A DNA stretch of 41,088 nt from Leucoraja erinacea (GCF_028641065.1 NC_073390.1:54892913-54934000); one strand, 5' to 3'; counted from the first letter of the stretch, positions 317 through 38,713 are shown. Numbers and translations: made by a program. The notes: a model not told the origin generated them from the letters alone.

Positions 317-332
317 AATTGAAAGTGAAACT
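317..332 (+). promoter_or_regulatory. ISRE / IRF-binding element upstream of RBR-A
   Basis: AATTGAAAGTGAAACT matches the GAAANNGAAACT consensus, 167 bp before ATG 499; GC box (gggagggcgggg) at ~266-277. Confidence 0.75.
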
Positions 333-498
333 TCTACAGATTGGAACTCCATGGGATTGGCCGTAAGGTTCACACTTCATTGCGTTTGTTTGCAGCAAGC
401 ATCAGTCGGGTGTTGGACTTTAGAGACAGTCGGAGCGGTCGTGAACAGGCGGCAGCAACCTTTGGACACATTGGTTGGGACTGAGCATCCAGGAAAGG

Positions 499-577
499 AT
501 GACGGAGACGCCGGGAAAGTGCTACGATCCCAATGACAGCACCCTGAAGTTTGTACAGAGAAAGGACGAGATCACAG
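499..577 (+). CDS. RBR-type E3 ubiquitin ligase paralog A, coding exon 1 (gene join 499-577, 2643-2740, 2863-3036, 3514-4028)
   Basis: MTETPGKCYDPNDSTLKFVQRKDEIT(G); aligns with RBR-B exon 1; phase-1 GT donor at 578. Confidence 0.85.
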
Positions 578-1502
578 GTCTCTTTTTAAAACTCATTCGT
601 TGATATATTTTATTTGCAGACGTTTCCTGACCTACCGAGCGTTTCAAGCATCTTCCGTCTGAATGTTTGAATTGGGAAACTAATGGATTTATCAACGCTT
701 TCCTGGGGCGTGGGAGGTGACCCCGTGTGGCCAGTTCGGACGTAGCAAAAACGGTGGAGGGGGGAATGAGATTGGGTTTGTCTGAGATTCCAGCATCAGG
801 GTAGTACCGACTCGGAAGATGACTTTGTCCCCAGGGATGTCATTCATTTTCAACTACCATCCCATATTGGGGACTATTCTATGACTCTCCTGTTCCTTTA
901 CGTTCCAGATAGATTAAGGGGAGAGCGGTGTGTCATTTGCTGCAAATACCCAGTCTCTGGTGCTGGAGCGGCAGTTAATGCATGTGCACGGCCAATCTCT
1001 AGTGTGTAGGATCCCTGCGTTGTCAGGCGCTTGTGTGCTTTGAAAGATCTGCCATTTTTCGGCCCAAATCTAACATTGGTCTAAATCTAACATTTTCTGC
1101 CGAAGGGACATTCTGGTTCGATATGACAGTGTGGAGAGAAAGGGGAACGGCTGGAGGAACTTAGCCTTGTCGAGGCTCTTGGGAGGTTGTCTATTTCCCT
1201 CCACAGACTGCTCACCTTCTCTTGCAGCAGATTCCAGCTTGTGCCGTCTCCATTGCCTCCTCGTTATGTGAGACACTGCCCATAACATTGAGCACGGGTA
1301 AAATATCCATCTGCAAACGTCCCCATTGTTGATCTTATGGGGAAGGACAAGACATTGATGAAGAAGCTGAAGGTAGTTGGAGCAACAGACAATACTCTGA
1401 AACACAATGATATAATTGTTTGAAGGTTTGATGACCAAGGGCTGAGGCAACTGATCACCAATAACCAACTCTCTGTATTTGGTATAGCTTCACCATTTGA
1501 TT

Positions 1503-2143
1503 CATAGTCAGAGTCCTAGGATCATACAGAGTGGAAACAGGCCCTTTGGCCCAACTTACCCACGCCAACCAATATATCGCATCTACACTGGTCCCACGCC
1601 TGCATTTGGCCAATATCCCTCTAAACCGGTCCTATCCATGCACCTGGCTAATTGCTTCTTAAACATAGCAACAATCCCTGCCTCAACCACCTCCTCCAGC
1701 AGTGCAGTCCATACACCCAGAACCCCTTTTTGTGAAAAAGTTACCCTCAGATTCCTATTAAATCTTTTCCCCTTCACCTTAAACCTATGCCCTCTGGTTC
1801 TCGATTCACCTACTCTGGGCAAGAGACTGGCCGGCTAAACTATCTATTCATGATTTTATACACCTCTATAAGATCACCCCTCACCCTCCTGCATTCTAAG
1901 GACTAGAGTCACCGCCGGCTCAATCTCTCCCAAAAGCTCAGACTTGAATCCTGGCAACATCATTGTAAATCTGTTTTGTACCCGTTACAACTTGACAATA
2001 TCTTTCCTCTAACAAGGTGCCCAGAACTGAATACAATCCTCTCAATGCGGTCTCACCAACGTCTTATATAACTGCAACATGACTTCCCAAACTCTATACT
2101 GAACACTCTGCTACACTCCAGACTGATGAGGGCCAATGTGCCA
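1503..2143 (-). mobile_element. CR1-clade LINE 3' fragment in RBR-A intron 1
   Basis: ORF 1583-1822 (ESRTRGHRFKVKG...FSQKGVLGVW) is a CR1 ORF2 C-terminus, followed by the 3' UTR. Confidence 0.85.
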
Positions 2144-2642
2144 ATTGCCCATTGGTTTTTCACAGGGCCACCTTGAGATTCAACTGGGTCAAATAGTGTA
2201 GTTCTCAGCTCCAAGTGTAGTCAGTCTGATCTAGTAATCTACTCCTTGCTATGTGCTGGCACCATATCTATAATGAGGGCTGCAGCTTGTTCTAGATATG
2301 AGCATTGTGTGGCAAAGTGAATGGTCCATGGTATCTCCTTTGCTAGCAATATGGGAGGAACAAGTTAGAAAGGTTGACCTCTTCAAAGTTTGCAGGTGAT
2401 GGATAATGCCAGGGAATGGAAGGGCTGGGTGGGGAGGGTGAGTAGACCAGGAAGTTACACACACAGAGTGATCCCAGCAGAAAGGGGGAGAGAGTTTGCT
2501 GGTTGACTTTGTCCTTCTTTTGTAAACAAGATATATTGGGACAATTCTCTACATTTATGGAGAGTTTACTTTATATTTTTATGTCAGAATTTGCTTGTTA
2601 TAAAAGTTATGCCAGAACTCTAATGAAAGATCTCATTTGTAG

Positions 2643-2740
2643 GTGATGATGACCCAAATGTTCTCAGAGTGGAGATGTCCTGTGGACATGCTGTGGACCC
2701 CACAGCACTGACCGGATGGTGCCGTAGCCTGATAGATCGT
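2643..2740 (+). CDS. RBR paralog A exon 2 (RING1-like N-half)
   Basis: AG at 2641-2642, GTAAGT at 2741; GDDDPNVLRVEMSCGHAVDPTALTGWCRSLIDR; 98 nt, same length as RBR-B exon 2. Confidence 0.9.
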
Positions 2741-2862
2741 GTAAGTATTTCTGGCAATCAGTTTCCATGCACTTTTCATTCATTTTAACTCTTGCATGGC
2801 CTTGCATCGAAGCAAACGTTAACATTGGTATTTTTGTTTGCAACACCCAATACCTATGTTAG

Positions 2863-3036
2863 GGTCATTTCACATTCCACTGCCCTGCTATAAAGGATGG
2901 AACAGAAGGAAAGTGCAACAAGGAATGGCCCTATGTGGAGGTTCGCAGGCATGCGTTGCTGACTGACGATGAACAGAAGTATTTTGAAGAGAAGGTTGCC
3001 TTACTCGCTGCGGCAAAGTACTGTGAATTCAGCACG
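2863..3036 (+). CDS. RBR paralog A exon 3 (RING1-like C-half and linker helix)
   Basis: AG/GT bounded, 174 nt as in RBR-B; GHFTFHCPAIKDGTEGKCNKEWPYVEVRRHALLTDDEQKYFEEKVALLAAAKYCEFST. Confidence 0.9.
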
Positions 3037-3513
3037 GTAATACAGCACCTTATTTATAATAAATGGTAACAAAATTCATAACAGGAATTGAGAAAATCCA
3101 AATTGGCAAGATGGAAATGGGCATAGGCAATCACAAGTACATATTTGCAAGAAGCAGAATTAGGCCATTCGGCCCATCAAGTCCACACCGCCATTCAACC
3201 ATGGCTAATCTATGTTTCCCTCTCAACCCCATTCTCCTATATAGTTTCAGTAGGAGGGAACTGAAGATACTGGTATGCACTGAAGATAGACTGAAAATGA
3301 TAGAGTAATTCAACTGGACAGGCAGCACGTCTGGATAGAAAGAGTGGATGATGTTTCTACCTGAAACCTCACCTAGTCCTATCCAGAAATGCTGCCTGTC
3401 CCACTGAGTTACTCCAGCATTTTGTGACTATCTTTGGTTTAAACCAGCATCTGCAGTTCCTTCCTATACATATTTTATTTCAGTGTTGAAGTCATTGTTC
3501 TGTCTTTCTTCAG

Positions 3514-4028
3514 TGCCCTGGATGCCAGACTTGTGTCGAGCGAAAAGATCTGACAAATCTTTCAGTGAGATGTTCCATTTGTACAGCGCAAAATGGAAGA
3601 TGCTATGAATTTTGCTGGCAATGTTCGAAGGAATGGAAGGGCCAAGCACCCCCCGTTCTGATCGATGCGACAATGAAGGATGCACAAACATTCAGCTGGA
3701 CGCCCTTAAGAAATGTGACATGAAAACTTTATTTTACAGTAAAATCCAATGCCCTAAATTCCGCGCTTGTCCCACATGTGGGATTACTATAGAGCATAAA
3801 GAAATGTGCAAGTATATCCTGTGCTCCAGGTGTCATGTGGAGTTTTGCTTTGCTTGTCTTAAGACCAAAGCAGTTTGTGAAAGATCATCTGACTTTTCTG
3901 CTACTTGTGCTAATCCCGTGGCCCCGAGGCAAACAAGTATTCCCACGTGGACTCGCACTACAAATGTTACTCATCAATCACCAATACCAACCACCAATAA
4001 TGAGAATTCATGGTGCACAATTTTATAA
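3514..4028 (+). CDS. RBR paralog A exon 4 (IBR + RING2 + CaaX tail); frameshift at 3649-3654 (assembly error or pseudogene)
   Basis: CPGCQTCVERKDLTNLSVRCSIC...FCWQCSKEWKG in the spliced frame, then PRSDRCDNEGC...CPTCGITIEHKEMCKYILCSRCHVEFCFAC...CTIL* in another frame; the unshifted frame stops at TGA 3721-3723. Confidence 0.85.
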
Positions 4029-4674
4029 AGCAAGTATCAGTTTGTGCAAAAACAGGAAAAGGTTTCAGGCACGGTAAATGAAGCATTGCCAATAAGCAAA
4101 TTGATAATCATTGTTGACTTTATTAAGATGCTACTTATTGCTAATAATGTGAATAAATAGATTTTGTATGGTAATTACGCAATATGCCATCCTGCAACAA
4201 AATATGATCACCTCAATTATAATTTCATTTTGTATCCATAATAATGTTAACTCTGAATTAATGTAGCATTTAGTCTGAGTATCTGTTTAATTTCAAGGTA
4301 ACATCAAAACCTGACTCGTATTTCATTTTGGATGTGGGTGAAACTTCAAATCTCTGTGTTGATGGTTTGAACAACCAAGGGTACTTTATTTTGAAATTTA
4401 TATTTTAAAATTTGCTTCTTAAATATGTGAATGCATTATGCAAAATTAATTTAATTGCATTTTTTCCTTCAATATTAAATTAAATTTACATTTTAAATAT
4501 TCAAAGTAATGGGCAGGAAATCACTATTTAAATATTGATAAATCAGCTGCCTGTGCACTGTTTTAACCTGTAGAATGCATACTGGTATTGGTTTGTGTGG
4601 CTCGGACAGGGTTTTTCATATAAGTTTGTTATGTTATTCATGTTATACCAACTCTGTAATGTTTGATTTCTTCA

Positions 4675-4680
4675 AATAAA
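4675..4680 (+). terminator. Candidate polyadenylation signal of RBR-A (alternative at 4152-4157)
   Basis: AATAAA after an AT-rich 3' UTR-like region; the site actually used cannot be determined from sequence. Confidence 0.35.
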
Positions 4681-5015
4681 ATGACCAGACGTTTGGCACA
4701 AGAATTCTGCATATTTGTATTGAAAATGTACAAAATGTCTCTCGTGACACAGAATAAATGGGCAAGAATTAGATGTGAAACAATTAGAAGCTATTTCCAA
4801 AATCCAATACCTACCTGAGAAAAAGAAGTTGGTAGTTTTTGTATAACTTTCTTTTAATACTGTTTAACGAGCATCCAGAACATCTCTACAATATCTGTGG
4901 AAGTCACAGAAATATCACGGTCTTCATATACAGAGTTCACACATACGTGTATGAGTCATTTATATTAGGAGCAGGTGTAGCCCGTTGATCAGCTCCACTA
5001 CTAAAGACTGGTTGA

Positions 5016-8000
5016 TTTTATTTCGGAGTCACGTGAGTGACTACGTGAAGAACCCGCCTCAGGACGCATGTGCGGCATTACGTTTCAGCAGGCAACAGCG
5101 GCAGGCGGGAGACAGGGCTCCCGTAACAACCAGAAAAACTAAGCTTTAGGTAAGTACTTACCTTTATTTTAACAGCCCCTTCGCGTCTGCTTGTTCCCCG
5201 CAGGGCATGCAAGCGGCCCCCTTGGACTCCGGGGAAGGAGTGTTCCGTTCGCGGAAGGGGGGGAAAGACGCCACCAGGACCGCACACACGGCGGACCATG
5301 GATGGGAGCTGTGCCGGTGCCGGTACCACTCCACAGGGGCGACAACGGGAAGACGGCGCTTGCACTGCGTTGGAGGTTCCCCTCAGTCCTCGCTCGCCCT
5401 CGAGTAACTGGCCAGGTGAGGCAGGCAGGCGGGCGGGCGGAGGCTTCCGACCATTCGGAGCCGATGAGGGGGACCCACGACGCAGTGTTGGCGTGGAGTG
5501 CGCTGCACTCTAACAGCAGCCCGAGTGCATGAGAGAGAGAGAGCGCACCGCGGCAGGACCGCTAACCAGCGCCCCGCTCCCGACACTGCACCAAGCCCGT
5601 CAACACTTCAGCAACGGGCTGGGGAAAACGCTGCACCTGCCTGCTCAACGGAGGACGTCTCATTGCGGGGGCAGCAACAGGCGGTAGGACCGCTTAGTGG
5701 GCGGTCCGCTACCCCGACACCACGACCGAGCCAGCCCGCTAGCGCCTGAGCAGCGGGCTGGATGTATGCAAAACCGGCCGGTGGTGCCGACATCGGACGG
5801 GGACGTCTCTCCACCCAGGAGGGGGAGAGACAGCCGCCTGAGCTGCAGGAGCGGCTCTTGGGCATTGGAGAGGTGAGTTGCAGTTGTGTTTTTTTTGCAG
5901 GTTTCAGGAACGCAACGCAGAAAACTCAAAAGATAAACTGCCCCGCTCCAACTCTACCAGCGGGGCAGCAACCAGCGGCAGCGTCGCTCGCAGAGCGTTT
6001 TTCGCTATCCCTGAGACCGAGCCAAGCCCAGTCTCGCCAGAGCCTGCACGGCGGACTGGGAAAGCGGCCAGGAAGCCAAACGGCCGGTCGTCTCCGACTC
6101 GTCGGAGGGGGACATGTCTCCACCAAAGCAGAGAGAGACAGCCGCCTGAGCTGCATTTAGCAGCTCCTGGAGGAGAAGGTCCACCGGGAACAGCAGCGCT
6201 CCCGGCGAGACAGGACAGGCACCTCCTCCATAGTGTCGTGTCAGGCACTGCCCTTTGCTACCCTCATACCACGGGTTGGAGCAGGAGGCTAGCATTGGTG
6301 ACCAGGGCAGGGCTGGTCTGCAAATGGGGCAGGCGGACAAAATCGGGAGTATGCATGAGGTGCAGGATCAGGAACAGCTGTTGGGTGTGGTGGACCGCTT
6401 CGTAGCAACCCCACAGGCTGGAGCACCGCCGGAGCCAAAAAATGGCAGCCAGTATTAACCACCTATCCAACAAACCTCTACTGAAGAAGGTGCTCGCAGG
6501 AAGTGCTGGTATTAAGGTGTACCACACAATTCGAACTAAACAATCTCCGGAGGGAAATATAAGACCTGCCCTCAATCTCAAAATTTGCAGGCTTGAGTAA
6601 AGCCCCAGCTGCGGAGGCAGACTCACTGCTATTTGGGGAGAGATCTGAACAAAAAGCTGAAGGAGATGGAAGAGGCATCAAAAACCTTCGGCATCATGAG
6701 GGCAGGCCCCGGGACGAGCAAACCACGACTTCCGATACCCAAGCGGCAGCACCCCACGGCATCCACCAGTCGACGTCTAGAATATGGGACTGGTGAACGC
6801 TTGGGGCCGCATTATCCCCAAAGATCTTTTAGATCAGGGCCCGCCGCGGACCCCCTGGAAAATGCGCCTCCCCCCAACGTCGCCAGCACGTCGTCAGAAC
6901 AAAAGCACTCAGAAAACAGAAAAGACAAAACCGCCAATAACCATGGAGGTAGGTGGGTCTGGTTCCTACCAGCATATAGAGCTCTTTCCTGGACTATCTT
7001 GGGTTTCATATTAATTCAGTCCACGTAACTATAATGTTGCCAAGAGACAACATAATAAACAAGCAACAAATTAATGGTCAACAAACTACCAACTACTCGA
7101 CAAGTAACAGAGTAATTGGGAAAATGGTAGCATTTCTGTCTACATGATTCAGACCTTAGTATCAAAAACAACATATACGTTGTCATTGAGCATCTCATGA
7201 AGTTACCCACTGAAGTAATATCAGAAAGACAGTGGTGGGGTTTACCACTTATACTGGGCATTAAGTATCTAAAAAATGTTCGGGTGAATTTTATGGATTT
7301 AAAGCACTTGCATGTACGGTTATAAATAGACTACACTACGGTGGTGGCCTACATTAACCATATGGGTGGCATAAAGTCGGTATCATGTGACAAGTTGGTC
7401 AAAACAATTTGGCAATGGTGTGTCCAAAGATGTATTTGACTATCAGCAACTTACCTGCCAGGTAAGCTAAATACAGTGACAGACACCAGGTCACATAAAT
7501 TTAATGACAACATCGATTAGATGTTTTTTATAAAAAAGTTTTAACAAAACTATCAAGCTATATGACACGCCAGATATTAATGCATTTCGTTGTCTCTGTA
7601 CTGTACACTGACAATGACAATTAAAAATCTGAATCTGATATCGATTATCTGCATCAACGCTAAATCACCAGGTGTTTGGGGATGTCCTATGTATGTCGCG
7701 TGGGAACCAGACCCTGGGGCAGCAAATGCGTTCGCGCTGCATTGGTGAAATTATTTCTATGTATTTCTTCCCTTCTGCCTCATCAATCGAGGACTACGCA
7801 CAGTACAAAAGGATTCTGCTTCAGGTATTTGATAGTACCTGACGGACTTACGCAGCCATGGTTCCCTATACGACATGACATGGTTGTTGAAACTTCGATG
7901 GTATTTCCCAGTAACCCAGAATTATTAACAATCGGAGCCGGGCACAAGTCAACTGTGCCATGGGAAAATCAAGCTCCTGGGTTGCAGATTCTGCACAAGC

Positions 8001-9448
8001 CATATCTGGGACTGGGATTGTTATACTGAACCATCGACACCATGTCAGCATCCTTCTGAACATCCACTGGACTACAGCACTTGTCCAGCATCAAGAGAAG
8101 TACTGCAAGGATACAGGGATAACCTACTCAACCGCTACAGTTACTACGAACTGGAATTCCTGGTGAACCTTCATCATGATGAAGGATTCGGCTACAGTAC
8201 CATCAACACAGCTAGAATTGCCCTGCCTGTTTTTTCAAAACAGCTACAGGACAACAGGCCATGGGGTCACTGGCTGGGGGTAAATCTTTGAAGGGTATTA
8301 CAACTCTAAATCCCTAGACCAGGTACACCCATATACGGGATGTCACAGTGGTATAACCATACCTCAGGGGATGCCCACCAGCCAGATCCCTAAACCTGAA
8401 CCTTCTATGCACTAAACACATATGTTGAGGGCACACGGAGCAGCACAGAGGGTCCAGTCACTACTCCTATTGCAACTGGACACCATGCTCACAGCTTCAG
8501 ACCAGATCTCTATCATTGTCCAGGGAATGGTCAAACCAAACCAGGAACACCTTATCCAGTCATAAAACCCGGGCTTACCCGCCAGAAAACACGGTAATGT
8601 GCCGTGACCCTATTACCTTACATAGACACAACCTAAATATTCGAGGGAGATGAAAAGCCTTGTGGGTTGGTCACAAAAAACCTTGTGGTCGGGAAACAAG
8701 CCTTTTTTGGGATGGCTCAAGCAGGTATTAAAGCTCCTGGGATAAAACTAACATGTACAAAGTTTTCATTCCACAGGACAAGCTTCCACGTCAACGGCAA
8801 AAGAATGGACGTGCCTATAAACCACATCCTGGCTACAGCAGAATGGTGGGGGTAAAACGTTCAGAGAAATAATTTATTATAAACTGTTGACAAAACCTGT
8901 TTTTATTTGCAGGAAAGATTCCAATCTGCAAATATTTAAATTAGCCAAGGGGAGCATTTAAATTTCTTCATTGTTATTGTAAAATACCATTGTGTTTCTA
9001 TAAACAGATTCATTGGTTGATTACGATAACACACTTCCTCCCTCAAAGACTTCGGCAGTGATGTAGTAATAGCTGTTACACGGTTTGAAATCACAGAAGC
9101 TTTGAAATCTTCACGTAGTCACTCACGTGACTCCGAAGTAAAATAGTAAGATTAAACGAGAACTTACCAGTTTGAAGTTTGATCTGTATTTTATGAGGAG
9201 TTACGATGAGGGATTACGTGCCCTCCGCTCCCACCCTCATTATATGGGTCAAACTGATAAATTGATGTCTCTTTGTCTTTACTATGTTACTTCAAATACT
9301 TGTGTCTATCTGTGATTCCACACCGCTGCTTTGAAGTATGCTGCACATGCGTCCTGAGGCGGGTTCTTCACGTAATCCCTCATCGTAACTCCTCATAAAA
9401 TACAGATCAAACTTCAAACTGGTAAGTTCTCGTTTAATCTTACTATTT
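5016..9448 (+). mobile_element. DIRS1-like tyrosine-recombinase retrotransposon: complete termini, degenerate coding regions
   Basis: ITRs 5042-5077 / 9339-9374; internal complementary region 9109-9220 matches both ends; RNase H remnant IDYTTVVAYINHMGG...YLPGKLN (~7310-7500); MT-like remnant (YVAWEPDP, FYVFLPFCLI, TQPWFP); YR remnant (~8000-8880, ...MDVPINHILATAEW); many stops and frameshifts. Confidence 0.92.
7578..7636 (+). mobile_element. Very short non-LTR retroelement 3' tail nested in the DIRS element
   Basis: aatgcatttcgttgtctctgtactgtacactgacaatgacaattaaaa + (aatctg)n, near-identical to ~32744-32810; flanked by a GATAT duplication (7573-7577 / 7637-7641). Confidence 0.75.
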
Positions 9449-10024
9449 GATTGTAAACTCCACATTTCCATCTACGTACAGTTAACTTTCACTCCCTCAC
9501 TATTGAAGAATCGTTCAACCACTGCCCTAACCCAACCACTTCACTTCCACTATTCTTTGGGGAAACATTTCAAAGACTGGCAACCATCTGCTAGAAAAAT
9601 AAAACAATATCTGACCTTGTTATATATTCATTTTGTTGGATCTGGCTCTTGCTGGTAAGGCCTGCCATTATCGCCCAGCCCTCTTTGTCCTTAGAAGGTG
9701 GTGGTGGGCTGTCTTCTTGAACCAATCCAGTCTTTCTGGTGAAAGCACTTCCCCAGTGTGATCGGGGAGGGAGCTCCAGGACTTAGTCAGCAACAATGAA
9801 GGACCAGCAACTAATTTTCGAGTCAGGGAGGGCAGAATGAGGCCACACACAATTTGAAGGAACATATTTCATATTTCACTTGGGCAGCTAACAAGCTCGA
9901 GGGTATCGTCCCAAAACGTTACCCATTCCTCTCCAGAGATGCTGCCTGTCTCGTTGACTTACTCCAGATTCTGTGTCTATCTTATAGGTAGATGGGACTA
10001 GGGGAGAATAAGTGTTTGGCAAGG

Positions 10025-10385
10025 ACTAGAAGGGCCGAGATGGCTTGTTTCCGTGCTGTAATTGTTATATGGTTATATCTTTGGTATGAATATTGAGTTC
10101 TTCAATTTCAAGTAGCCCTTGTATTCCATCCCCATTCCTACCCCACCCTAGTTGTCCTGCCAGATCCACTGTTTGCATCGCCACTTCCACAGCCAACAAT
10201 GGACCATTGTGGGCTCCACCTTTCCTTGGTCATCGGTGCTGGCTCTGATTTGTTCTGAACCTTGTCATACCTCTGGTTTGCCTCTCCCTTGACAGTCTGC
10301 AGAAGGGTTTCAACACAGAACAGTCACATCCATTTTCTCCAGTGATGCTGCCTGACATTTGAGTTACTCCAGCCTTTTGTGTCTC
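10025..10385 (+). mobile_element. Penelope-like / mixed retroelement fragment
   Basis: Ends in the recurring gaagggt...ttctccag...gagttactccagc module also seen at 23460-23540, 29879-29970, 31130-31260 and 38880-38985. Confidence 0.5.
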
Positions 10386-10800: not shown

Positions 10801-10801
10801 T

Positions 10802-13035: not shown

Positions 13036-13497
13036 TTAGTCATATCTATGCCATGTTGGGATTGCAGTTTGCCTTGGACTAATGCCTTTGGCACAGACAT
13101 CAAACCACGACTCGGGTCTTTGTGCCTGGCATATGGGAGTCAGCTCGAGACAGGCAAAGCAAAATTCAACATGACACCTACAACAGATAATATTTTTACA
13201 TCCCCTCTGGTTGTGTTCAAGCAGCTTGCCACACGTCGGACAGGCTCGAATAGAAGGGCAATTCTTCACCACAGTCTCTACGAGGCTGACTAATGGACAG
13301 GTGCGGAGGATTTCCAATTCCATGTTGGTGCAGCCATCGTTGTTGCATCGATCAGAACGTGGACCCGGTCCCTTCCACTGTTTCAGGCACTGCCAGCAGA
13401 ACTCATAAACATGGCCTTTCTCTGCTGTACAGATGGTGCAGCGGACATTCAGGTTACTCAGATCTGTGCGTTCAACAAATGTTTGACAGCCAGGACA
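13036..13497 (-). CDS. RBR-type E3 ubiquitin ligase paralog B, exon 4 (IBR + RING2); gene join complement(13036-13497, 15302-15475, 19258-19355, 22176-22242), 266 aa
   Basis: CPGCQTFVERTDLSNLNVRCTIC...FCWQCLKQWKG...CPTCGKLLEHNQRGCKNIICCRCHVEFCFAC...PTWHRYD*; CAG acceptor at 13500-13498. Confidence 0.93.
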   Translation of the reverse strand, partial: CPGCQTFVERTDLSNLNVRCTICTAEKGHVYEFCWQCLKQWKGPGPRSDRCNNDGCTNMELEILRTCPLVSLVETVVKNCPSIRACPTCGKLLEHNQRGCKNIICCRCHVEFCFACLELTPICQAQRPESWFDVCAKGISPRQTAIPTWHRYD

Positions 13498-14035: not shown

Positions 14036-14108
14036 ATATAATTGTGATTAAGGAATGTAATACAGACACAACCATGGGAGTACAGAACAGTTATCCTTAT
14101 TTTCAGTA

Positions 14109-15301: not shown

Positions 15302-15475
15302 TGATTTATATTCACAATACTCAGCAGCAGCCAACACAGCGACTGTTTCCTCAAAATGTCGCTGCTCCTCACTGGTCAGCACTGCCAGTTGGCGAACTTC
15401 ATGGTAGGACCACTCCTGTCCACAGTTCTCTGTCGTTCCATTTTTCAGCGCTGGGCAGTAAAACTTGTACTGACC
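15302..15475 (-). CDS. RBR paralog B exon 3
   Basis: GQYKFYCPALKNGTTENCGQEWSYHEVRQLAVLTSEEQRHFEETVAVLAAAEYCEYKS; 174 nt, AG / GTACGT bounded. Confidence 0.92.
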
Positions 15476-19257: not shown

Positions 19258-19355
19258 CCGATCCAGGAGACTGCGACACCACTGGGTCAGTGAGTTGGGG
19301 TCCACTGCATGCGTGCACGACATTTCAGCTCGCAAAATGTTGGGATCATCATCTC
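19258..19355 (-). CDS. RBR paralog B exon 2
   Basis: GDDDPNILRAEMSCTHAVDPNSLTQWCRSLLDR; 98 nt, CAG acceptor, GTAGGA donor. Confidence 0.92.
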
Positions 19356-22175: not shown

Positions 22176-22242
22176 CTGTGATTTCATCTTTACTTTTCAC
22201 AAATTTCAGAGTGCGATCTTTGGGGTCGTAGCGTTTCTCCAT
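22176..22242 (-). CDS. RBR paralog B coding exon 1
   Basis: MEKRYDPKDRTLKFVKSKDEIT(G); phase-1 GTAAGT donor; aligns with RBR-A exon 1. Confidence 0.9.
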
Positions 22243-22317: not shown

Positions 22318-22327
22318 GGAAAGTCCC
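22318..22327 (-). promoter_or_regulatory. NF-kB site upstream of RBR-B
   Basis: GGGACTTTCC (canonical Ig-kappa site), 76 bp before ATG 22242, in non-repeat sequence. Confidence 0.6.
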
Positions 22328-28028: not shown

Positions 28029-28165
28029 TTAGCAACATTTTCCTCCTCCAGGCAGACGCAACACCATCATTATTGTGGATTTATCCATGACCTTATAATC
28101 CGAGAGCCTTTTATCATCTTCCAGTTGTTCATTGGCAAAAAGAAGGCGGAGATCGTCTGCTTGAA
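28029..28165 (-). CDS. Single-domain ubiquitin-like protein, exon 2 (gene join complement(28029-28165, 31436-31580), 93 aa)
   Basis: VQADDLRLLFANEQLEDDKRLSDYKVMDKSTIMMVLRLPGGGKCC* aligns with ubiquitin [37 protein letters not shown]; polypyrimidine tract + TAG acceptor; phase 1. Confidence 0.92.
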
Positions 28166-28204
28166 CTAAACCAAAAGCAAAAGCGAGATAGTGAGAGGAA
28201 TACA

Positions 28205-29456: not shown

Positions 29457-30002
29457 TTGTTATGCTGTAAAACTCATGATTTAAAAAAGGTTTATTTCAG
29501 AATGAACATTTTGAATCCTGTGGTAGATAAACAGTTTCACTCAAATACTGCGTTACAAATTCTGCTTAGGAAACCTTACCAACTAAGCCACAATTTGCTG
29601 TTTTGTTTTGGCATTAATCAAATGGTGCAAATGTCCTAGTGTTGTTTGTGAAAGGCACAAAAATAGCAAGAACTTTAACTGTGTGGATCACAGATGAGGG
29701 TTGCTTATTTACAGGTGCATCGAAGGTGAGATAATATTATTTGTTTCAGCATGGGGGTTCTTTGTTGATGTGTTTTGCAGGTTTTTGTGATCACCAGAGA
29801 ATAACATGGCAAAGCACAGTGTCATGGAGTCACGGAACTACACGGCTCATCTTGTTTGCACTGTTAGTCAAACACCCAGTCTGAAGAAGGGTCCCGACCT
29901 GATACTTCACCAATCCTTTCTCTCTGGATATGCTGCCTGACCCACTGAGTTACTCCAGCACTTTGTGTCGACCAATTTTTTACTCTATTCCCATACTTAG
30001 GA

Positions 30003-30560
30003 CATGGAACATTGAACAGTATAGCACACAAACAGGCCCTTCAGCCCACATTGTCTGTGCCGATCATAATGCTAAGACCAACTGTTATCTGTTTGTGGAT
30101 AATCCATATCCATCCATATACATGTGTCTGTGCAAAGCCTCTTAAATGCCACTATCGTCTCTGCCTCCATCACCACCCCTTGCAGCACGTTCCAGGCACC
30201 CATCACCCTCTGTGTAAAAAACCTGCCCCACACACCTGCTTTACATTTGCCCTCTCACCATGAAGTTATGCCCTTTAGTATTTGATATTTCTATCCTAGG
30301 AGAAAGTTCTGACTGTCTACCCTATCTATACGCCTCATACTTTTATATACTTCTGTCAGGTTTGCCCACAATCTCCGATGTCAAGAGATAACAATCCAAG
30401 TCTATCCAAACTCTTTTTGTAACTAATACCTTCTAATCTAGGCATCATTCTGGTAAATATCCTCTGCATTCCTTCCAAAGCTTCCAAATGTTTTCTGTAA
30501 TGGGGCAACCAGAACTGCAACACAATATTCTAAACCCAGCCTAGTCACAGTTCTATAGAG
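30003..30560 (-). mobile_element. Older CR1 LINE fragment
   Basis: Antisense CR1 3' region (caccctctgtgtaaaaa, gaccagaactgca-like motifs). Confidence 0.75.
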
Positions 30561-30799
30561 CTCATCCATTTATTTGCATTCCTACATTTCCATCAGCTCC
30601 CTCAAGATTTTTCTGGTCACCCACATACGGCAAAAATCAGCAGCTTTAATATCTTGGAATGATTTTGAAGATAGCAACAGGCGAGAGATATATGTGAGGT
30701 TGTTCTTGTGATGGGAGCAACGAACAGGATGCACTTTTTATAGTCAGTAATTTACATGGCATTGTTTCTGGGAACTATAAAGAATAAGCCCAGTTTTTA

Positions 30800-31010
30800 A
30801 AGATACAGCGCGGAAACAAGATCTATCTTACACAGTACAGGCAATTTACAATTTTTACTGAAGCCAATTAAACGACATGTACTTCTTTGGAGTGTGAGAG
30901 GAAAGCGGACCACCCAGACATCTCCGTGCGGTCACAGGGAGAATGTACACACAGCACCCACCCATATTCAGGATCGAACCCATGTCTGTAGGCAGCAGCT
31001 CTACCAGCCC
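30800..31010 (-). mobile_element. V-SINE, diverged
   Basis: ttggagtgtgagaggaaa...ggtcacagggagaatgtac...caggatcgaaccc. Confidence 0.7.
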
Positions 31011-31435
31011 TAACCATTTATACAGCATTGTTTCAGGAAACTAGCTTAATAAGACCAGTTTGTTCTGTGTAAACTAGGAGCTGTCATGTCTTGTAGCCCA
31101 TTGACATTTCTGCAGATGGGTTTAGATTGTTCAAGAAGGGTCTCGACCCGAAACGTCACCCATTATTTCTCTCCAGAGATGCCGCCTTTCCCGCTGAGAT
31201 ACTCCAGCTTTTTGTGCCTATCTTCAGTTTAAACCAGCATCTGCAGTTCCTTCCTACATATTTAGTTTGTTATGATATCGTTGACATAAGTGGGGGAATT
31301 TTACACCAGTAAAAAACAGCGTTAGAAATCCTGTACAAATGAGACAGATGCTATCCCTCAGAAAACCGTGTAAAACTGCTGGGTTAAACTGGTTTTTAAA
31401 AGTATGAATACATTTCCAACTTATCGCTTAAATAC

Positions 31436-31580
31436 CTGTTCCTTGCGGCAATTTTGTCAACAGTTTCATTTTAAACACCAGAACCGTCGTCTCATTGAAC
31501 TCTTTTTCCGTCTGTGAAATATCAACAGTAGTTGTTTCTCCCTTGAGCCCCTTCACTAACACTTGATAGATTTTTCCCAT
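31436..31580 (-). CDS. Ubiquitin-like protein, coding exon 1
   Basis: MGKIYQVLVKGLKGETTTVDISQTEKEFNETTVLVFKMKLLTKLPQGT resembles ubiquitin MQIFVKTLTGKTITLEV...TIENVKAKI; phase-1 GT donor joins exon 2 in frame (145+137=282 nt). Confidence 0.9.
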
Positions 31581-31656
31581 TTTACTCCTGCGAAGGTTTT
31601 TATCAGGTTGTTTTCGTTCCTCTGCTGTTCTCAAAGTCTTGCAACAAATAAAATTC

Positions 31657-31674
31657 AGTTTCACTTTCAATTTC
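31657..31674 (-). promoter_or_regulatory. Extended ISRE upstream of the UBL gene
   Basis: GAAATTGAAAGTGAAACT: three GAAA cores at 6-nt spacing, 77 bp before ATG 31580; TATAAA at 31692-31687. Confidence 0.8.
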
Positions 31675-32064
31675 CGGTTTAAAGACTTTATAACATACAC
31701 TACAGCAGCTCCTGTGTTTGTAAATACAATCATGTTTTATTAACGCATAGTTGTGTGCTGTGGCATATCAGTAATACTTCAAAACATATAATACGTGATT
31801 TTATCAAATCAAATGTTCAGATTTGATTTTTCTTCATTTTGCATCCAGTTTTGGTCTGTTTGAAATGGAAACCAAGTATAGATTACAGATCATGTATTAT
31901 TGGCACAGATGACCATCCACAAATAGATGGAATTAGAGCCCTATCCCTCTAAACCTAGCCCATCCATATATCTGTCCAAATGTTTTAAGTGCTGCATCAA
32001 CTACCTCCTCTGACAGCACGTTCCATATATCTACCACCCTTTGTGTAAAACAATGGGACACCTT

Positions 32065-32368
32065 GGGTGGCACAGTGGTAGAGTGGTAGAGTTGCTGCCT
32101 TACAGCACCAGAGACCCAGGTTTGATTCTGGCTACGGGTGCTGTCTGTGTGGAGTTTGTACGTTCTCCCCCCCTGACCATGTGGGGTTTCTCCAGGAGCT
32201 CCGGTTTCCTCCCCATTCCAAAGACGAATAGGTTTGTAGGTTAAATGGTTTCTGTAAATTGTAAATTGTTCCTAGTGTGTAGGATAGCGCTAGTGTGTGG
32301 GGTGATTGCTGATCGGCACGGACACAGTGGGCTGAGGAGCACTGGATCTCTAAACTCATCTAAACTTT
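32065..32368 (+). mobile_element. V-SINE (HE1-like), near full length
   Basis: tRNA-like head gggtggcacagtgg..., V-domain, (tctaaac)n tail. Confidence 0.85.
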
Positions 32369-32679
32369 AAATGAGAGGGATTTCTTTCCCTGCTGTACCT
32401 TTCAATCAATCATTAACTTTTTTCCCCAATTGTATTTTTTGCATTAATATCTTGTTTTGCAGTCTTTTTCACTTTCCTAATAAAAATGTAAGTGTATCGT
32501 ATGTTTTATGTGTTGTCTGAATCTATCAGCTGTTGCAAGAAAGATTGTTGTTGAATCTGTCCGTACTGCCCAGCTTACTTCTGTACACCATATCCTATAT
32601 CCTGGACTAAACAGTATCAGTATATAGGATATATATAGGAACAGTAACAATCATCCCCCCCCCCCCCCCCCCCCCCCGC

Positions 32680-32810
32680 GGACACTTATTTATTATTTTT
32701 TTATTCAAATCGTTTGCTATGTCGCTCTTCAAGGGAGATGCTAAATGCATTTCGTTGTCTCTGTACTGTACACTGACAATGACAATTAAAATTGAATCTG
32801 AATCTGAATC
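32680..32810 (+). mobile_element. Non-LTR retroelement 3' tail with (aatctg)n
   Basis: Same tail as the insert at 7578-7636; preceded by a long C run. Confidence 0.65.
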
Positions 32811-33224
32811 AGTGATTTGTGTTCACGATCCCTTGATCATTCTTTATCTCCTTGCCCTGTTAACCCCTTCAGTCACTTCTCAGATCAATTGACTGGTGAT
32901 CCTTATCTTATATAAGGTCAAATTGACACAAACTCTGACAGGTTACATCTTTGATGCCAGATTAAATAAGACAAAGATTTAAACATGTGCCTGTTGACTA
33001 ATACTCATCTTAGACTTCTCAAATGCAATCACAATCAAAGGTTGGTAGGTGACATGACTTGTCGAAGGGGTTTTCCAGTCAAATATTAGTCTGGCATTTC
33101 AGCGCGGCACTTACACTTTGCTGCTTGTAAAATGTCACCAGAACCAACCTCAGCAAAGAAAGGTGACAAACAAACCAATTGTACTGTGAGCTGTAACACA
33201 AATGTTATATTGTGTGTCACAACT

Positions 33225-33407
33225 CTACTGAACGTTTTTCCTTCCATTATTTATTATGTAAAAGAATATGTGTGTTATGATTGTGTTTATCATTTGTTTG
33301 GTTGTTTTGTTGTTTGTCTTTTGCACAAAAGTCCGCGAGCATTGCCACTTTCATTTCACTGCACATCTCGTATGTGTATGTGACAAATAAACTTGACTTG
33401 ACTTGAC
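33225..33407 (+). mobile_element. LINE 3' tail (Rex1/Babar-like) with (cttga)n
   Basis: catttcactgcacat...atgtgtatgtgacaaataaa(cttga)n. Confidence 0.55.
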
Positions 33408-34519
33408 ATTATTGTATTTTAAAACTGGGGAATTTACTTCAGGGGATGTATCATTGCCAGGGATGGTGGTGGAGGAGGCAGATATGATGGTGATTTTTTT
33501 AGAGGCTTTTAGATAAACACATGGAGAGTGCAGGGAATATAGAGGGATATGGGTTATGTACGAGCTGATGAGTTCAGTTTAACATGGCATCATGTTCAGC
33601 ACAAACATTGCTGGCCGACGAGCCTGTACCTATACCTGTGCTGTTCTATGTGCTATTACCTGTAAAACAACATTGCAATGGATTAGACTGATATCTGTTT
33701 TTTTATTGTTATTCTTTTAGTTTGACTGCATTATTGCAGATAGAATGTGGCATTGTCACTATATTTAGCTGACTTCCTTGTACAGATGTGTTTACTGGAA
33801 TCATTGAATATAATTGAAAGAGCAATTAAGCTATTCATAATTTTTTGGCTCGTGCATAAAAAATTCAAAACATTTCCATCATCCTCAAATTCCACACATA
33901 TTACACACATAGCCCTATTCCATGACATGTAAATTAAATTAGAAAATAGTTGCAGAGATTTTGATAACACCACACAGAGACTTGGAGCAAGCAGGGAGCA
34001 GCCAGTGAGGTTACTGCCACCCACCTCCAATGAAGTAGGTTCAATGTAGACCTTTGGTGCTGTCTCTGTGGAGTTTGCATGTGTTCCCTGCAACCGTGTG
34101 GACTCCCCCAGGTACTCAGGTTTCCGGTAAATTTCCCCTCTGTGTTGGTGGGTGGCAGAAACCGGGGAGAGCTCCCTCGATTATGGAAAGTATGTTACTG
34201 TGATATTAGTGTAAATGAGTACTCGATATTAGGCATAAAATCAATGGGCTGAAGGGCCTGTATTCCTCTATAACTGTGTTAGTATACACTGTTAACAGGA
34301 AGTATTTGAGAGCACTCTGAAACAATGTTACACATTAAACATTGAAATAATTGGTTGTTTTATCTTCTATCATTCTTCCACTTTGAGAAAAATTAGAATT
34401 GTTCTGATTAAAATACCCGTATAAATCAATCAACGTTTAGAAGGAGTTATGATAAAATTCTAAGATGTGGCACAACTTTCGCTTGGTGCAGTGTTCAAAC
34501 CCTGGGGAAGAATGGGAAT

Positions 34520-34820
34520 ATACAGTGGTGCATCGGTAGAGTTGCTGTTACAGCACCAGAGACCATGGTTCCATCCTGACTACGGGTGCTGTCTGTACAG
34601 AGTTTGTTCCTTCTCCCTGTGACCACGTGGATTTTCCCCGAGTGTCCTTTGTTGCTCCCACACACCAAACACTTGCAGGATTGTAGGTTAATTGACGGGT
34701 AAAAATTGTAAATTGTCCCTAGTATGTAGGACCAAGCTAGTGTACGGAGTGGTCGCTGGTCGACGGCAACTTGGTCGGCTGAAGGACCTGTTTCCACACT
34801 GTATCTCTGAAGTCTAAATT
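34520..34820 (+). mobile_element. V-SINE (a more diverged copy lies at ~33995-34280)
   Basis: cagtggtgcatcggtagagttgctg head plus V-domain. Confidence 0.8.
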
Positions 34821-36240
34821 CACAGTTCTCCATTCTGTTTTGCACGCTGTGCTCATTTTCAGTGAAAGAAAGAATGCATTGAAACATGGAATAACAGGAA
34901 ATTGTAGATATTCCACAATTTGCCATCTGAATTTTTGTGTCCCTGATGTGTGAACACACAGAAGAACGGAGGCATGTGCAGCGATATTCAGCGCAGGTAT
35001 CACATGCCTGGGTATGCAGGTATCTTGGCATTATAACCTTACCACCTGCATGAAGCATGGACATTGAATTTGCATAGGTCGCCCATGCAGAAACAGGTCA
35101 TCACAATAGTTCTGAGTCATTTATTACCAGAACATGGCAATCTGTGGAGTTCAGTCTTCTAAACCAATCGTGGGTAGATCAAAGTTTAGAGACACAGCCT
35201 GGTAACAGGCCCTTCAGCCCATCGAGTCCATGCCGACCATCAATCACCCGTATATTAGTTCTATATGAAATAATATGTTTCCATTCTTCTGATGTGAAGG
35301 TCCTATATGGTGTAAAGCCTGAAGTTGCCACTTTATTGCATTTTTTTAAACTGTTTTCTGTGATACTGTTAGCCATCTACGCTTTGGGAATGTAGACTAT
35401 ATCAAGAGTAAATTTAAAAGGCAGAAACATACTATTTCGAAGCACTATGTGTTCTCTGAACTTAGTTGTGTTAACACTGAGTTTTCTTTTAAGTTGGTAG
35501 GGTCAGCACTGTGCATTCCCATCTCCATTTAATATGAACTAAGGTTATATTCTTAGAATTATATTCTTATAATCATATTCTGTAAGAAGGATGTATATTC
35601 CTCTTGGAATTTCATGTTCTTAACAAATTTACGTTTCAAACCCTGAATACACTGTTCAGCCATATAGTGATTATTTGGTAAATTAACACTTTCCTTCCTG
35701 AAAGATCTGAAAAATCTGCCGCTACATTAAGTCGAAGGATACCTCCGACGGGGGTAAATACCAGTCCCTGAGATAGGGACAGAACTTCGAAGTGAGAAGG
35801 CTAAGACCTCGGAGAGGCGCAGCCAAAGAAGATTATATAAAGCTAATATTATATTCTTGATAGGTATACTTTAATTTGACACATATTGATAAATATAACC
35901 TTCATTTGATGCCATGGAGCCTCTCCTAATATTGGCAGCCCAAGGATCTTGGTCTAATCACTGAAAGAGTGTCATAATATCAAATAAGCAATGTGGACTC
36001 TGTCTGAACCATGTAACAATATAACAATGAAGGAGGGTCCCGACCCAAGATGTCTTCTGTCCATTGCTCCACAGATGCAACCTGGTCCACTGAGTTCTTC
36101 CTGCACCTTGTTTGCTACTCAGGGTTCCAGCAACTGCAGACTCTTGTATCTTCAATAGGGTATTAACTTTTTCAGTTCCAATATGAATTGAAAATCGGGT
36201 CAAAATCAAAATGACATCCCCACTCATTACCGGCTTACCG

Positions 36241-37097
36241 GTAGGCGGCGCGGCTCTGGCCAGCAGCGGCCTCTGCAGTCTGTCCGCGTTTTTATTATTT
36301 TCTGTCTGTGTTTTAATGTAGTTTTTGTTATTTTTTTGTTGGGGTGTGTGTGTGTGGGGGGGTGGGGGGGGGTGGGGGAGGGGGGGGGGAAACTTTTTAA
36401 ATCTCTCCCTGCACTGGAGACCCGACCTTTTTCTCGTCGGTTTCCGTTGTCGTTGAGGCCGCAACGAGGAGCGGCCTCCAACAGGAGGAAGCCGGGGACT
36501 CAGGTGCTACTCACCGTCACCGTCGCGGGGCTGGCCGAGTCCGGAGCGGTTGGAGCGGTGGAGGAGCGCTGCTGCTGCTGCTGCTGCTGCTGAGTCGGAG
36601 GCTGCTACTGCGGGTCTGCAGACAGCGGCGCCGGGAGCCCGCGGATCCCTGGAGAGAGACCGCTTTTCGGGGCTCCTGCAACGGCGAATTCTCCCGCCCG
36701 AGTTGCGGGGTCGAAGAGCTCCTGGAGCGGGGCCTAACACCATTGCCCCGCGCGGCTGGAACGGCTGCGGGACTTTACGAGCGCACACCGGGGGCTCCAA
36801 CATCAAGACCCGGTGTGCGACCTCGCACCACCCGGCGTGGCTTTAATGGCCGCGGGACAATCGCCATCGCTAGCCGGGGGCTTTGACTTTGACTCTGACA
36901 TCGGGGGGGGGAGAGTGCAGTGGAGAGATAAGTTTTTTTTGGCCTTCCATCACAGCTATGTGATGGATGTTTATGTAAAATGTAATTATGTTGTGTCTGG
37001 GTCTATTTGTGTGTAATGTATGGCTGCAGAAATGGCATTTCGTTTGGACCTCCAGGGGTCCAAATGACAATTAAATTGACTCTTGACTCTTGACTCC
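36241..37097 (+). mobile_element. Non-autonomous GC-rich non-LTR retroelement with 3' stem-loop and (ttgactc)n tail
   Basis: Architecture shared with 17082-17900; contains (GCT)8 at ~36568-36591. Confidence 0.65.
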
Positions 37098-37221
37098 TCA
37101 CAGACCTAGAGTTATGGTGTGTAAACAGATCCCTCGACCCAAATTGCCCATGCCGACCAACATGCCCCATCTAAACTTGTCCTACCTGCCTGCATTTAGC
37201 CCATATCCCTCTAGGTCTATA

Positions 37222-37677
37222 GGGTGATTTCACGAAAGGTCACTGGAGCGTAGATCCGCACCCACGTGGCCGAAAATCTCAAGTGGAGTACATGCTAGGA
37301 TGTCAATAATGCCTTACTTTTGATGAAATTCAGCGAGCAAACGCGATAATTCCCGATATTTTGGACCTTTAAATCTCCACGGCAAATGTCCGCTGTTCAC
37401 TTCCGCTGGATTGGCACCTTCAGCTCCCTCTTGAATTTACCTTAGTTTCTATCTTTTTTTTGGACTGTAAATCTAGGTAGCTGTGCCTCACGGTCACCCC
37501 GACTGGCACAATAAATTGCAGATCAAAACCTGGCCGTTTTCTATGTTTTTAACGGGTGGGAAAGTGCGTGTTTTCCCATCCACTAACATGTACCGGATGT
37601 CTAGCATGTCCTCCACTTGAGATTTTCGGTCACGTGGGTGCGGATCTACGCTCCAGTGACCTTTCGTGAAATCACCC
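37222..37677. mobile_element. MITE with 77-bp TIRs inserted in a CR1 tail
   Basis: 37222-37298 vs 37601-37677 are inverted with 2 mismatches; flanked by TATA on both sides; the host CR1 tail resumes after the element. Confidence 0.9.
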
Positions 37678-37799
37678 TATACTATCAATGTACCTGTCCA
37701 AATGTCTCAACATTGTGGCAGTACCTGGTATGAACTTGGAAAACATCCCACATTGTTAAGTTGCTGCTAAGCCAATAAATAGTTAAATGTAAAGGTATG

Positions 37800-38100
37800 C
37801 ACAGAATCTCTAGCCCAGAGTAGGTGAATCGAGAACCAAAGAGCATAGATCTAAGGGTGAGGGGTGTGAGGTTTTATCGGAATCTGAGGGGTAACTTTTT
37901 CACACAAATAGTGGTGGGTGTATGGAACAAGCTGCCAGAAGAGGTAGTTGAGGCTGGGACTATCGCTACGTTTCATAAGCAATTAGACAGGTAGATATGT
38001 TAGGACACGTTATGGGCCGAACCCAGGCAGGTGAGACTAGTGTAGATGGGACATGTTGGGCGGTGTGGGCAGGTTGGTCTCCACACTGTATGACTCTTAT
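37800..38100 (+). mobile_element. CR1 LINE 3' fragment
   Basis: ggtgaatcgagaacc...ttttttcacaca...tggaacaagctgccagaagaggtagttgaggc; related to 1503-2143. Confidence 0.8.
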
Positions 38101-38416
38101 GAACAAAACATTTGTTGCTTCGCTTGCCGCATTAGATGCGTTCACAGAGCCCATTGAATTCTATGCCCCATTGTGGCTCTGCCTTTAACTCTGAATCAAC
38201 CCGTTAAACTGAAGCGGACGCTCTTAAGTTTGAAACGTAATCAAAATAAAAGTGAGTGCCGTATGCTGACAAAGATGTTGGCAGTCTGAAATACAATACA
38301 ACACGCTGTAAACGCGGAGTCTGTTGCTGGGTCGGTGGTGTTTCTGGGCAAGGAGGTGTCTGTGTTGTGTTGTGAAGCTGGAGCTGTCGTTGCTGTGACC
38401 AGGGAATCAACAGCAC

Positions 38417-38428
38417 AGTTTCAGTTTC
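38417..38428 (+). promoter_or_regulatory. ISRE upstream of the putative fourth gene
   Basis: AGTTTCAGTTTC matches AGTTTCNNTTTC, 79 bp before ATG 38507. Confidence 0.65.
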
Positions 38429-38506
38429 GTTTGTGTGGAAACTGTGAGGAGCAGCGAGCGGCCCGGCCTGGCCTGTGTGGCATCGAGTTCCCGTGGGTGC
38501 TGCACC

Positions 38507-38713
38507 ATGTCCTACAGCGACTACGCTTGGATTCGGTCGGAGAGAAGGATCGCTAACCAGTCCAGATCTACAGCCCACGACAGGACCCTGTACTACGACA
38601 GAAGGATTTGGGACACAATCGGCAGCAGCAGCCGAACCCCCTACTCTCGGATCCCGGACAACATCCTTCAACTTCGTCAGGCGAGATCCCACTGGGAAAC
38701 GTATCCAACCGGG
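38507..38713 (+). CDS. Putative first coding exon of an unidentified gene (69 codons)
   Basis: Good Kozak context gcaccATG; CpG-rich non-repeat open frame MSYSDYAWIRSERRIANQ...HWETYPTG; phase-0 GG|GTAATG donor; upstream ISRE. No recognisable domain and no exon 2 identified in the window. Confidence 0.5.

Follow-up and report, generated by a model that had tools for sequence, protein, structure and literature searches.

A candidate interferon-inducible cassette of ubiquitin-like modifier, ARIT ligase and USP protease genes in the little skate

Whether neighbouring genes for a ubiquitin-like (UBL) protein and for RING-between-RING (RBR) ligases could make up a conjugation system of their own is the question raised by a stretch of 41,088 nucleotides from the little skate, Leucoraja erinacea (GCF_028641065.1, NC_073390.1:54892913-54934000), hereafter called the window. 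A sequence-only reading of positions 317 to 38,713 had described there a di-glycine UBL gene, two paralogous minimal RBR genes (RBR-A and RBR-B) and an orphan first exon, and had proposed a modifier system parallel to ISG15. The window is vertebrate DNA rich in repeats, and four genes were reconstructed from splice signals (Table 1). It forms one end of a block of about 230 kb on chromosome C14 (54.72-54.95 Mb, within 441 kb of C14 examined), which contains five UBL genes, four RBR genes of the ARIT type, three further USP proteases and USP18. The order in the block is USP(+), USP(-), UBL(-), USP(+), ARIT(+), UBL(+), UBL(+), ARIT(+), UBL(+), RBR-A(+), RBR-B(-), UBL(-), USP18(+); other genes within the block were not searched for systematically. 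With modest confidence, somewhat on the favourable side of even, the block is regarded as an interferon-induced modifier-ligase-protease cassette parallel to ISG15, in which the UBL would be conjugated to targets.

The UBL gene consists of two exons on the minus strand and encodes 93 residues, with a Pfam ubiquitin match on exon 2. The NCBI model (XP_055502437.1) begins 51 codons earlier, and the orthologues of two other skates have 93 residues. The gene, its length and its ubiquitin domain were described correctly at first, but the di-glycine (GG) is internal and not terminal, as the protein ends in LRLPGG-GKCC. The family was collected with an exon 1 profile made from five skate paralogues (E<=0.001), which returned 129 representatives, with ordinary polyubiquitins among them, and with a further search that listed 62 proteins. 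Members with names are found in cartilaginous fishes (skates, rays, sharks, a chimaera), in bony fishes (bichirs, teleosts with zgc:194655, lungfish), in a turtle and in Old World monkeys (Pygathrix, Macaca). Among the matches listed there was no UBL from apes, mouse or birds, in searches that cannot show absence. After the removal of polyubiquitins, multi-domain and partial rows, 70 complete single-domain members were aligned. The GG was in register with G75-G76 of ubiquitin in 64 of these, and in 0 of the 64 did it stand at the C-terminal end; the tails behind it comprise 1-68 residues without conservation. All five skate paralogues, with 42-47% identity to the window copy, keep both the GG and a tail. 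Proline occupies the position of ubiquitin R74 in 46 of the 64 UBLs, and arginine that of R72 in 41 members. Since the GG is never terminal, the UBL would need processing. A constant GG ahead of a freely varying tail is the mark of a processed pro-form, as in ubiquitin, NEDD8, SUMO and mammalian ISG15. Over all the explanations considered below, it is likely that the UBL is conjugated at all. The end of the pro-form (28029-28043, minus strand) carries two cysteines, GKCC, with GRRC in two other skates, and these cysteines could be lipidated before processing.

The relation of the UBL to known modifiers was determined by alignment and structure. Identity is 32/76 (42%) to skate ubiquitin and 35/78 (45%) to the C-terminal domain of skate ISG15. 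The model of the 85%-identical Rhinoraja orthologue has a beta-grasp fold with a template modelling (TM) score of 0.75 and a predicted family-specific extra helix at residues 25-30, and ubiquitin forms make up the 60 best matches shown among solved structures. The UBL is a single domain ending in LRLPGG, in contrast to the two-domain LRLRGG form of ISG15, and the single domain likewise excludes FAT10. The earlier exclusion of ubiquitin, NEDD8, SUMO, ISG15 and FAT10 is thus upheld, with NEDD8 and SUMO not aligned one to one. True skate ISG15 is a separate two-domain gene on chromosome C25 (155 residues, LRLRGG), where an array at G000:C25:25.470-25.516 Mb holds two ISG15 genes, of which this one was read, together with three more UBL frames of two domains each. 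One more frame of this kind, with an internal LRLRGG, was seen at C7:985.5 kb. Four metagenome proteins (P0206, P0209, P0178, P0231) are divergent look-alikes of the UBL family that share its inserted segment and may be non-vertebrate members, and two predicted proteins (P0130, P0143) have a CARD-like N-terminal part joined to a UBL of the zgc:194655 type.

The ISG15 system (ISG15, UBA7, UBE2L6, HERC5/6 and USP18) would be like the skate arrangement in having an interferon-induced beta-grasp modifier with a processed di-glycine end, a co-induced ligase and USP18-class protease, and unlinked activating (E1) and conjugating (E2) enzymes. It is unlike it in that the skate UBL has a single domain, LRLPGG for LRLRGG and a predicted helix inserted after strand 2, that the candidate ligase (E3) is an RBR and not a HECT protein, that modifier, ligase and proteases lie in one block, and that the skate two-domain ISG15 genes lie on a different chromosome from this block. 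By analogy, the UBL cassette may work like the ISG15 system without being a member of it.

The second component is the ligase. By sequence, both window RBRs are members of the ARIT clade, which was named by Grimholt, Sindre and Sundaram in 2025 (PMC12234341; this and the other published studies are cited for the sections and tables consulted). They carry the N-terminal and RING2 signatures of the carp, barramundi and turtle rows in the published alignment SF1.12, compared by eye, and identity of the skate RBR reaches 179/263 to a chum salmon and 149/261 to a turtle protein. The query with RBR-B exon 4 gave 167 relatives among 172 candidates (84-268 residues); the matches listed (120 of 167) include teleosts (zebrafish si:ch211-212k18.15), sharks, lungfish, salamanders, turtles, platypus and aardvark. 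The frame of RBR-B is open throughout its 266 residues, which form an RBR module alone, with no extra domain or transmembrane segment, and the description of these ligases as minimal proved accurate. The published clade is alike in consisting of an RBR only, in lacking a transmembrane segment, in its N-terminal signature and in its teleost-to-monkey range, and its members are induced by virus or interferon gamma (PMC12234341). Salmon ARIT rises 11-13 log2-fold with interferon gamma and 4 with infectious salmon anaemia virus (ISAV), ARIT occurs in monkeys and not in apes, ISG15 was raised as a possible cargo, and the domain structure was called typical (PMC12234341). In the sections examined, that paper is silent on the UBL gene next to ARIT and on the linkage, and it includes no cartilaginous fish (PMC12234341). 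The present analysis adds a RING1 without zinc site 1 and the occurrence of lineages A and B side by side. In an unrooted tree of 18 rows without outgroup, RBR-B and the teleosts split from RBR-A, the sharks and the tetrapods (100/98), and the skate therefore has two old ARIT lineages next to each other.

RBR-A and RBR-B have the same exon sizes and are identical at 158 of 262 aligned residues, so that the claim of two paralogous genes stands, with the reservation that RBR-A is frameshifted in the assembly by two extra bases in the C6 run at 3649-3654. These bases were absent in 4/4 sequencing runs compared. Contig 9 of run X3, taken to be RNA by guess, joins 387-575, 2641-2737, 2863-3035 and 3513-3965 in frame; it differs from RBR-A in exons 1-3 at 2, 0 and 1 positions, the upstream paralogue differs at 9, 6 and 7, and its 3' end is also of the RBR-A type. 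This splicing contig supports the exon model and indicates that an in-frame RBR-A exists. The DNA contigs may collapse with the ARIT paralogue 17 kb upstream, as an X1 contig at double depth has paralogue-type letters, and therefore the DNA runs alone do not settle the frame; raw reads of run X24 (about 1x) were too thin and were not used. The frameshift is a private allele, in which case other animals probably carry an intact RBR-A, or an assembly error. A fixed RBR-A pseudogene is not supported, as the extra bases are missing in all runs compared. RBR-A would end (4014-4028, plus strand) in a CaaX-like CTIL, and in the published alignment CLIL is the C-terminus of ARIT from macaque, baboon and golden monkey (PMC12234341); some ARITs may therefore be prenylated and membrane-bound. 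Immediately before the window, the ARIT paralogue (G000:C14:54879549-54880200, 307 residues) has a long poly-Asp tail at its end and an arginine within the CGH motif, which is invariant otherwise. Unplaced scaffolds carry two divergent ARIT-like genes (G000:C1529:4136-6371 and G000:C1240:102568-102912; 31-37% identity), and no UBL match was found within the 20 kb fetched around each of them.

The canonical RBRs (parkin, HHARI/ARIH1, HOIL-1, RNF216, RNF144) share with ARIT the RING1-IBR-RING2 fold and the RING2 cysteine; ARIT differs in lacking four of the eight RING1 ligands, the histidine at Cys+2 and an autoinhibitory domain. Among 50 ARIT sequences, RING1 ligands 3 and 4 are kept in all 50 and ligands 7 and 8 in 49, ligands 5 and 6 are non-Cys in all 50, and Asp, Thr or Pro stands in the columns taken for ligands 1 and 2. 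The catalytic cysteine of RING2, which aligns with that of ARIH1, is present in 49/50, with an invariant lysine at Cys+1 and a histidine five residues before the cysteine. The AlphaFold model of a shark ARIT (P0064, pLDDT 88) covers the chain and has the RING1-IBR-RING2 fold, all its top Foldseek matches are RBRs, and the best whole-chain TM scores are with active transthiolation states of RBRs. Residues 19-116 of this model match RING1 of HOIP and RNF144 with Z 6.3-6.6, which is middling on the tool's scale. In SP-RING SUMO ligases (NSE2/MMS21, PIAS), a RING with the second zinc site only serves a non-ubiquitin modifier; the ARIT RING1 matches RBR RING1 better (Z 6.3-6.6) than the SP-RING of NSE2 (Z 3.4), and no kinship is claimed. 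These deviations bear on the possibility, considered very unlikely, that the UBL is a free interferon-induced protein, such as a decoy for viral deubiquitinases, a stabiliser of USP18-type proteins or a secreted signal, as is free ISG15, whose GG serves for binding to protease active sites. The proline before the GG together with the degenerate ARIT motifs could mean that standard charging fails, and the rapid duplication of the UBL, with five copies in skate, is in keeping with a decoy on which viruses exert pressure. However, the RING2 cysteine conserved in ARIT travels with the UBL, and a ligase would be superfluous for a decoy.

The third component is the protease. The exon at 38507-38713, described before as the start of an orphan gene, is the N-terminus of the 497-residue USP18 (XP_055502438.1, 100% match; Pfam UCH at 171-486), and the candidate novel gene was rejected when a search for longer proteins returned this match. 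The remaining exons map over the next 21 kb, and the gene ends at about 59 kb in window coordinates. For exon 1, the ESM Atlas gave no usable match and the skate genome no paralogue. The best solved match is USP18 (E 1e-51), followed by USP47 (8e-41) and USP7 (2e-21), and the gene is by annotation and by this match USP18, as distinct from the sister clade 'USP18-like' (annotated USP47-like). Its Cys box and His box are present (Cys179, His430); Met447 stands at the position of the third catalytic residue, an asparagine in human USP18, and the next aspartate is kept. The three further USPs in the block, which are known from their box exons, have intact Cys- and His-box exons and are closer to teleost USPs than to USP18. 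They resemble the USPs that are merged with the UBL in teleost gene models, and from position and similarity they may be assigned to the published 'USP18-like' clade. The finding that the orphan is a deconjugating protease, with three more USPs in the block, makes the picture first proposed stronger.

Conservation of the linkage in other species had been proposed as a check. Identifiers of UBL and ARIT are consecutive in three of five comparable species, namely Coilia (ACEWY4_025072/025073), Triplophysa (E1301_Tti005159/005160) and Salminus (XP_072542895/896). Some gene models merge UBL with ARIT (Siganus, Gambusia) or UBL with USP (Caranx, Scomber, Thunnus, Siganus). True fusions were rejected, as most of these proteins are without part of a domain or are joined at exon 1, and they are therefore read as gene-model merges, which are evidence of adjacency only. 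The salmon USP18-like gene and ARIT.1 are 157 kb apart, and each responds to ISAV and interferon gamma by induction (PMC12234341). The ranges of UBL and ARIT match, from sharks to Old World monkeys. This linkage has to be set against the view that the UBL is a covalent modifier served by the general machinery (UBA7 or UBA1, HERC or TRIM ligases), with ARIT and the USPs as independent neighbours among interferon-stimulated genes (ISGs). The identities to ubiquitin (42%) and to the C-terminal ISG15 domain (45%) and the mostly kept equivalents of R42 and R72 would suit such machinery, ISG clusters are common, and the ARIT paper proposes ISG15 as cargo (PMC12234341). Nevertheless, UBL and ARIT are tightly interleaved and co-duplicated in skate, they adjoin in three teleost orders, and their ranges agree as far as Old World monkeys, so that this view is considered unlikely.

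The 12-mer of the interferon-stimulated response element (ISRE), RGTTTCNNTTTC, occurs four times in the window against 0.27 expected (30 Markov shuffles). Three of the four stand upstream of start codons, at 167 bp for RBR-A, 77 bp for the UBL and 79 bp for USP18, and the earlier observation of ISREs within 170 bp of three of four starts was confirmed. In the whole block, 6/9 mapped ATGs have an ISRE core no more than 200 bp away, compared with 2.3% of random windows; two of the six starts are recent duplicates, which leaves about four independent cases. ISREs also occur 0.9 and 2.4 kb before the Cys-box exon in two of the three further USP genes. The NF-kB site described before RBR-B is present 76 bp upstream of the ATG, but it was rejected as evidence since the class is not above chance in the window (four against 6.1 expected; present in 1% of random 200-bp windows).

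Co-induction, the other check proposed, is seen in published tables for bony fish. In trout head kidney with viral haemorrhagic septicaemia virus (VHSV), zgc:194655 (UBL) and si:ch211-212k18.15 (ARIT) share five lists of upregulated genes, those for T and B cells in both lines and for monocytes in one, with log2 fold changes of 2.6-4.6 and 2.7-3.6, respectively, and their rows adjoin in the clustered heatmap list (PMC12648952). The UBL is not named in the main text as consulted (PMC12648952), and the trout orthologues of UBL and ARIT are mislabelled as UBA52 and RNF19A. In norovirus-infected zebrafish macrophages, both genes mark cluster 2 together with isg15, rsad2, usp18 and uba7; they are detected in a small share of the cells (6% and 4%; PMC11591593). 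The main text of a zebrafish ISG paper names neither gene, and its tables may list them (bioRxiv 10.1101/693333); UBL and ARIT were not found in 12 of the 16 supplementary files of PMC11218377, and the parts consulted of PMC13030082 and PMC11258392 held nothing assignable to them.

Linkage, co-induction and shared range would be explained equally if the UBL, free or processed, were a non-covalent partner of ARIT, which binds the allosteric site between RING1 and IBR and switches on ARIT as a ligase for ubiquitin or ISG15. Allosteric activation by ubiquitin or UBLs is common among RBRs, with phospho-ubiquitin, di-ubiquitin and NEDD8 as examples (PMC9834252), and ARIT has no regulatory domains, so that a UBL acting in trans would provide one. 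This explanation leaves the GG in 64/70 members ahead of a free tail, as well as the proteases in the block, unaccounted for, and it is considered rather unlikely.

In the favoured reading, that of a dedicated cassette, IRF or ISGF3 at the ISREs would induce the genes for UBL, ARIT ligase and USP protease jointly. The UBL would be made as a pro-form and cut after the GG by a USP of the block, most likely of the USP47/USP18-like family and possibly by USP18. E1 and E2 enzymes from other loci would then charge it, with UBA7 or UBA1/UBA6 as candidate E1s; the arginine equivalent to R72 is kept in most fish UBLs. ARIT may bind the charged E2 via a RING1 with preserved fold and a single zinc site, and its RING2 cysteine would accept the UBL and hand it to host or viral targets, with a presumed antiviral effect. 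The same USPs could take the UBL off again.

Several results weigh against this cassette. No E1 or E2 lies in the window, as had been stated at first, and chromosome C14 holds 0 of the 48 E2 matches and 0 of the 17 ThiF matches in the genome, which are lower bounds from a search done exon by exon. The proline at the R74 position is uncommon, and standard E1s and USPs could be impeded by it. ARIT does not have the eight-ligand RING1, as one zinc site is gone, and at Cys+2 it has Asn in 36, Tyr in 12 and Ser and Thr in one each of 50 sequences, with His in 0/50. RNF144 is likewise without histidine at this position in SF1.12 (PMC12234341). Without four RING1 ligands and the catalytic histidine, the chemistry of ARIT is not that of parkin or HHARI. 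In two of the five comparable species (the turtle Mauremys and the lungfish Protopterus), UBL and ARIT are on the same chromosome only. In salmon, 22 Mb separate USP18a from ARIT.1, and USP18b is on a different chromosome (PMC12234341). The skate has ISG15 genes elsewhere, which are enough to explain USP18. In the comparison of infected with bystander zebrafish macrophages, neither gene is significant (adjusted p 1), and neither are usp18 and uba7 (PMC11591593). Moreover, clustering and co-induction are found among immune genes that do not act together. The proposal of an ISG15-parallel system with its own E3s is thus sustained in its linkage and, for bony fish, in its co-induction, whereas its parts are less new than supposed: ARIT was named in 2025, USP18 is well studied, and the USP18-like clade also has a name already. 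For the UBL family and the modifier-ligase-protease linkage, no describing paper was found in the open literature, with subscription journals and unseen supplements outside this scope.

Table 1. Positions of genes and promoter elements in the skate window (window coordinates).
Feature	Position	Strand	Remark
ISRE GAAAGTGAAACT, upstream of RBR-A	321..332	+	167 bp before ATG; 12-mer class 4 vs 0.27 expected
RBR-A exon 1 (ARIT, shark/tetrapod-type lineage)	499..577	+	splice signals, spliced contig of run X3
RBR-A exon 2 (RING1, single zinc site)	2643..2740	+	splice signals, contig of run X3
RBR-A exon 3	2863..3036	+	splice signals, contig of run X3
RBR-A exon 4 (IBR-RING2, C-terminal CaaX-like CTIL)	3514..4028	+	frameshift in C6 run 3649-3654
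RBR-B exon 4 (ARIT, teleost-type lineage; IBR-RING2, catalytic Cys in GCKN)	13036..13497	-	Pfam IBR E 1e-8
RBR-B exon 3	15302..15475	-	splice signals
RBR-B exon 2 (RING1, single zinc site)	19258..19355	-	splice signals
RBR-B exon 1	22176..22242	-	splice signals
kB-like site GGGACTTTCC	22318..22327	-	76 bp before the ATG of RBR-B; no more than suggestive
UBL exon 2, C-terminus LRLPGG + 4-residue tail	28029..28165	-	Pfam ubiquitin E 2e-9; XP_055502437.1
UBL exon 1 (zgc:194655 family)	31436..31580	-	GT-AG phase-1 intron to exon 2
Tandem ISRE	31657..31674	-	77 bp upstream of UBL ATG
ISRE	38417..38428	+	79 bp upstream of USP18 ATG
USP18 coding exon 1 (former orphan), 207 bases, then GT	38507..38713	+	XP_055502438.1, 100% match

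The block is flanked (54.67 Mb; 55.03-55.08 Mb) by a rhodopsin-family G protein-coupled receptor, a RhoGEF and an EF-hand-like gene, which we take to be neighbours of human 2q37 and not of human USP18 at 22q11; on this assumption, USP18 would have moved in one lineage. Between RBR-A and RBR-B, at 5015-9448, lies a decayed retroelement remnant that has inverted terminal repeats and, internally, an inverted pair of 80 nt; its DIRS-type class was assigned by reading and not from a library match. An open reading frame of 338 residues at G000:C14:54676043-54677056 is tyrosine-recombinase-like.

The list of conjugated UBL modifiers in vertebrates is short and was built on human and mouse. It is possible, though somewhat less likely than not, that jawed vertebrates have a second dedicated interferon-induced conjugation pathway, composed of a single-domain UBL, its own RBR with a one-zinc RING1 and its own USP, of which USP18 would be a tandem duplicate that has gone over to ISG15. 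Such a pathway would have been kept in turtles and Old World monkeys and lost in apes, so that macaques and fish would have an antiviral tag that humans lack. If this is true, it would be a new branch of antiviral immunity, missed because the best-studied lineages appear to lack the UBL cassette. It would provide a cargo for the orphan ARIT ligases and a substrate for the 'USP18-like' proteases, as well as an example of an RBR that works with a half-zinc RING1 and without the catalytic histidine. The cassette would also be relevant to aquaculture, as UBL and ARIT are among the strong responders to VHSV in trout, and to macaque infection models.

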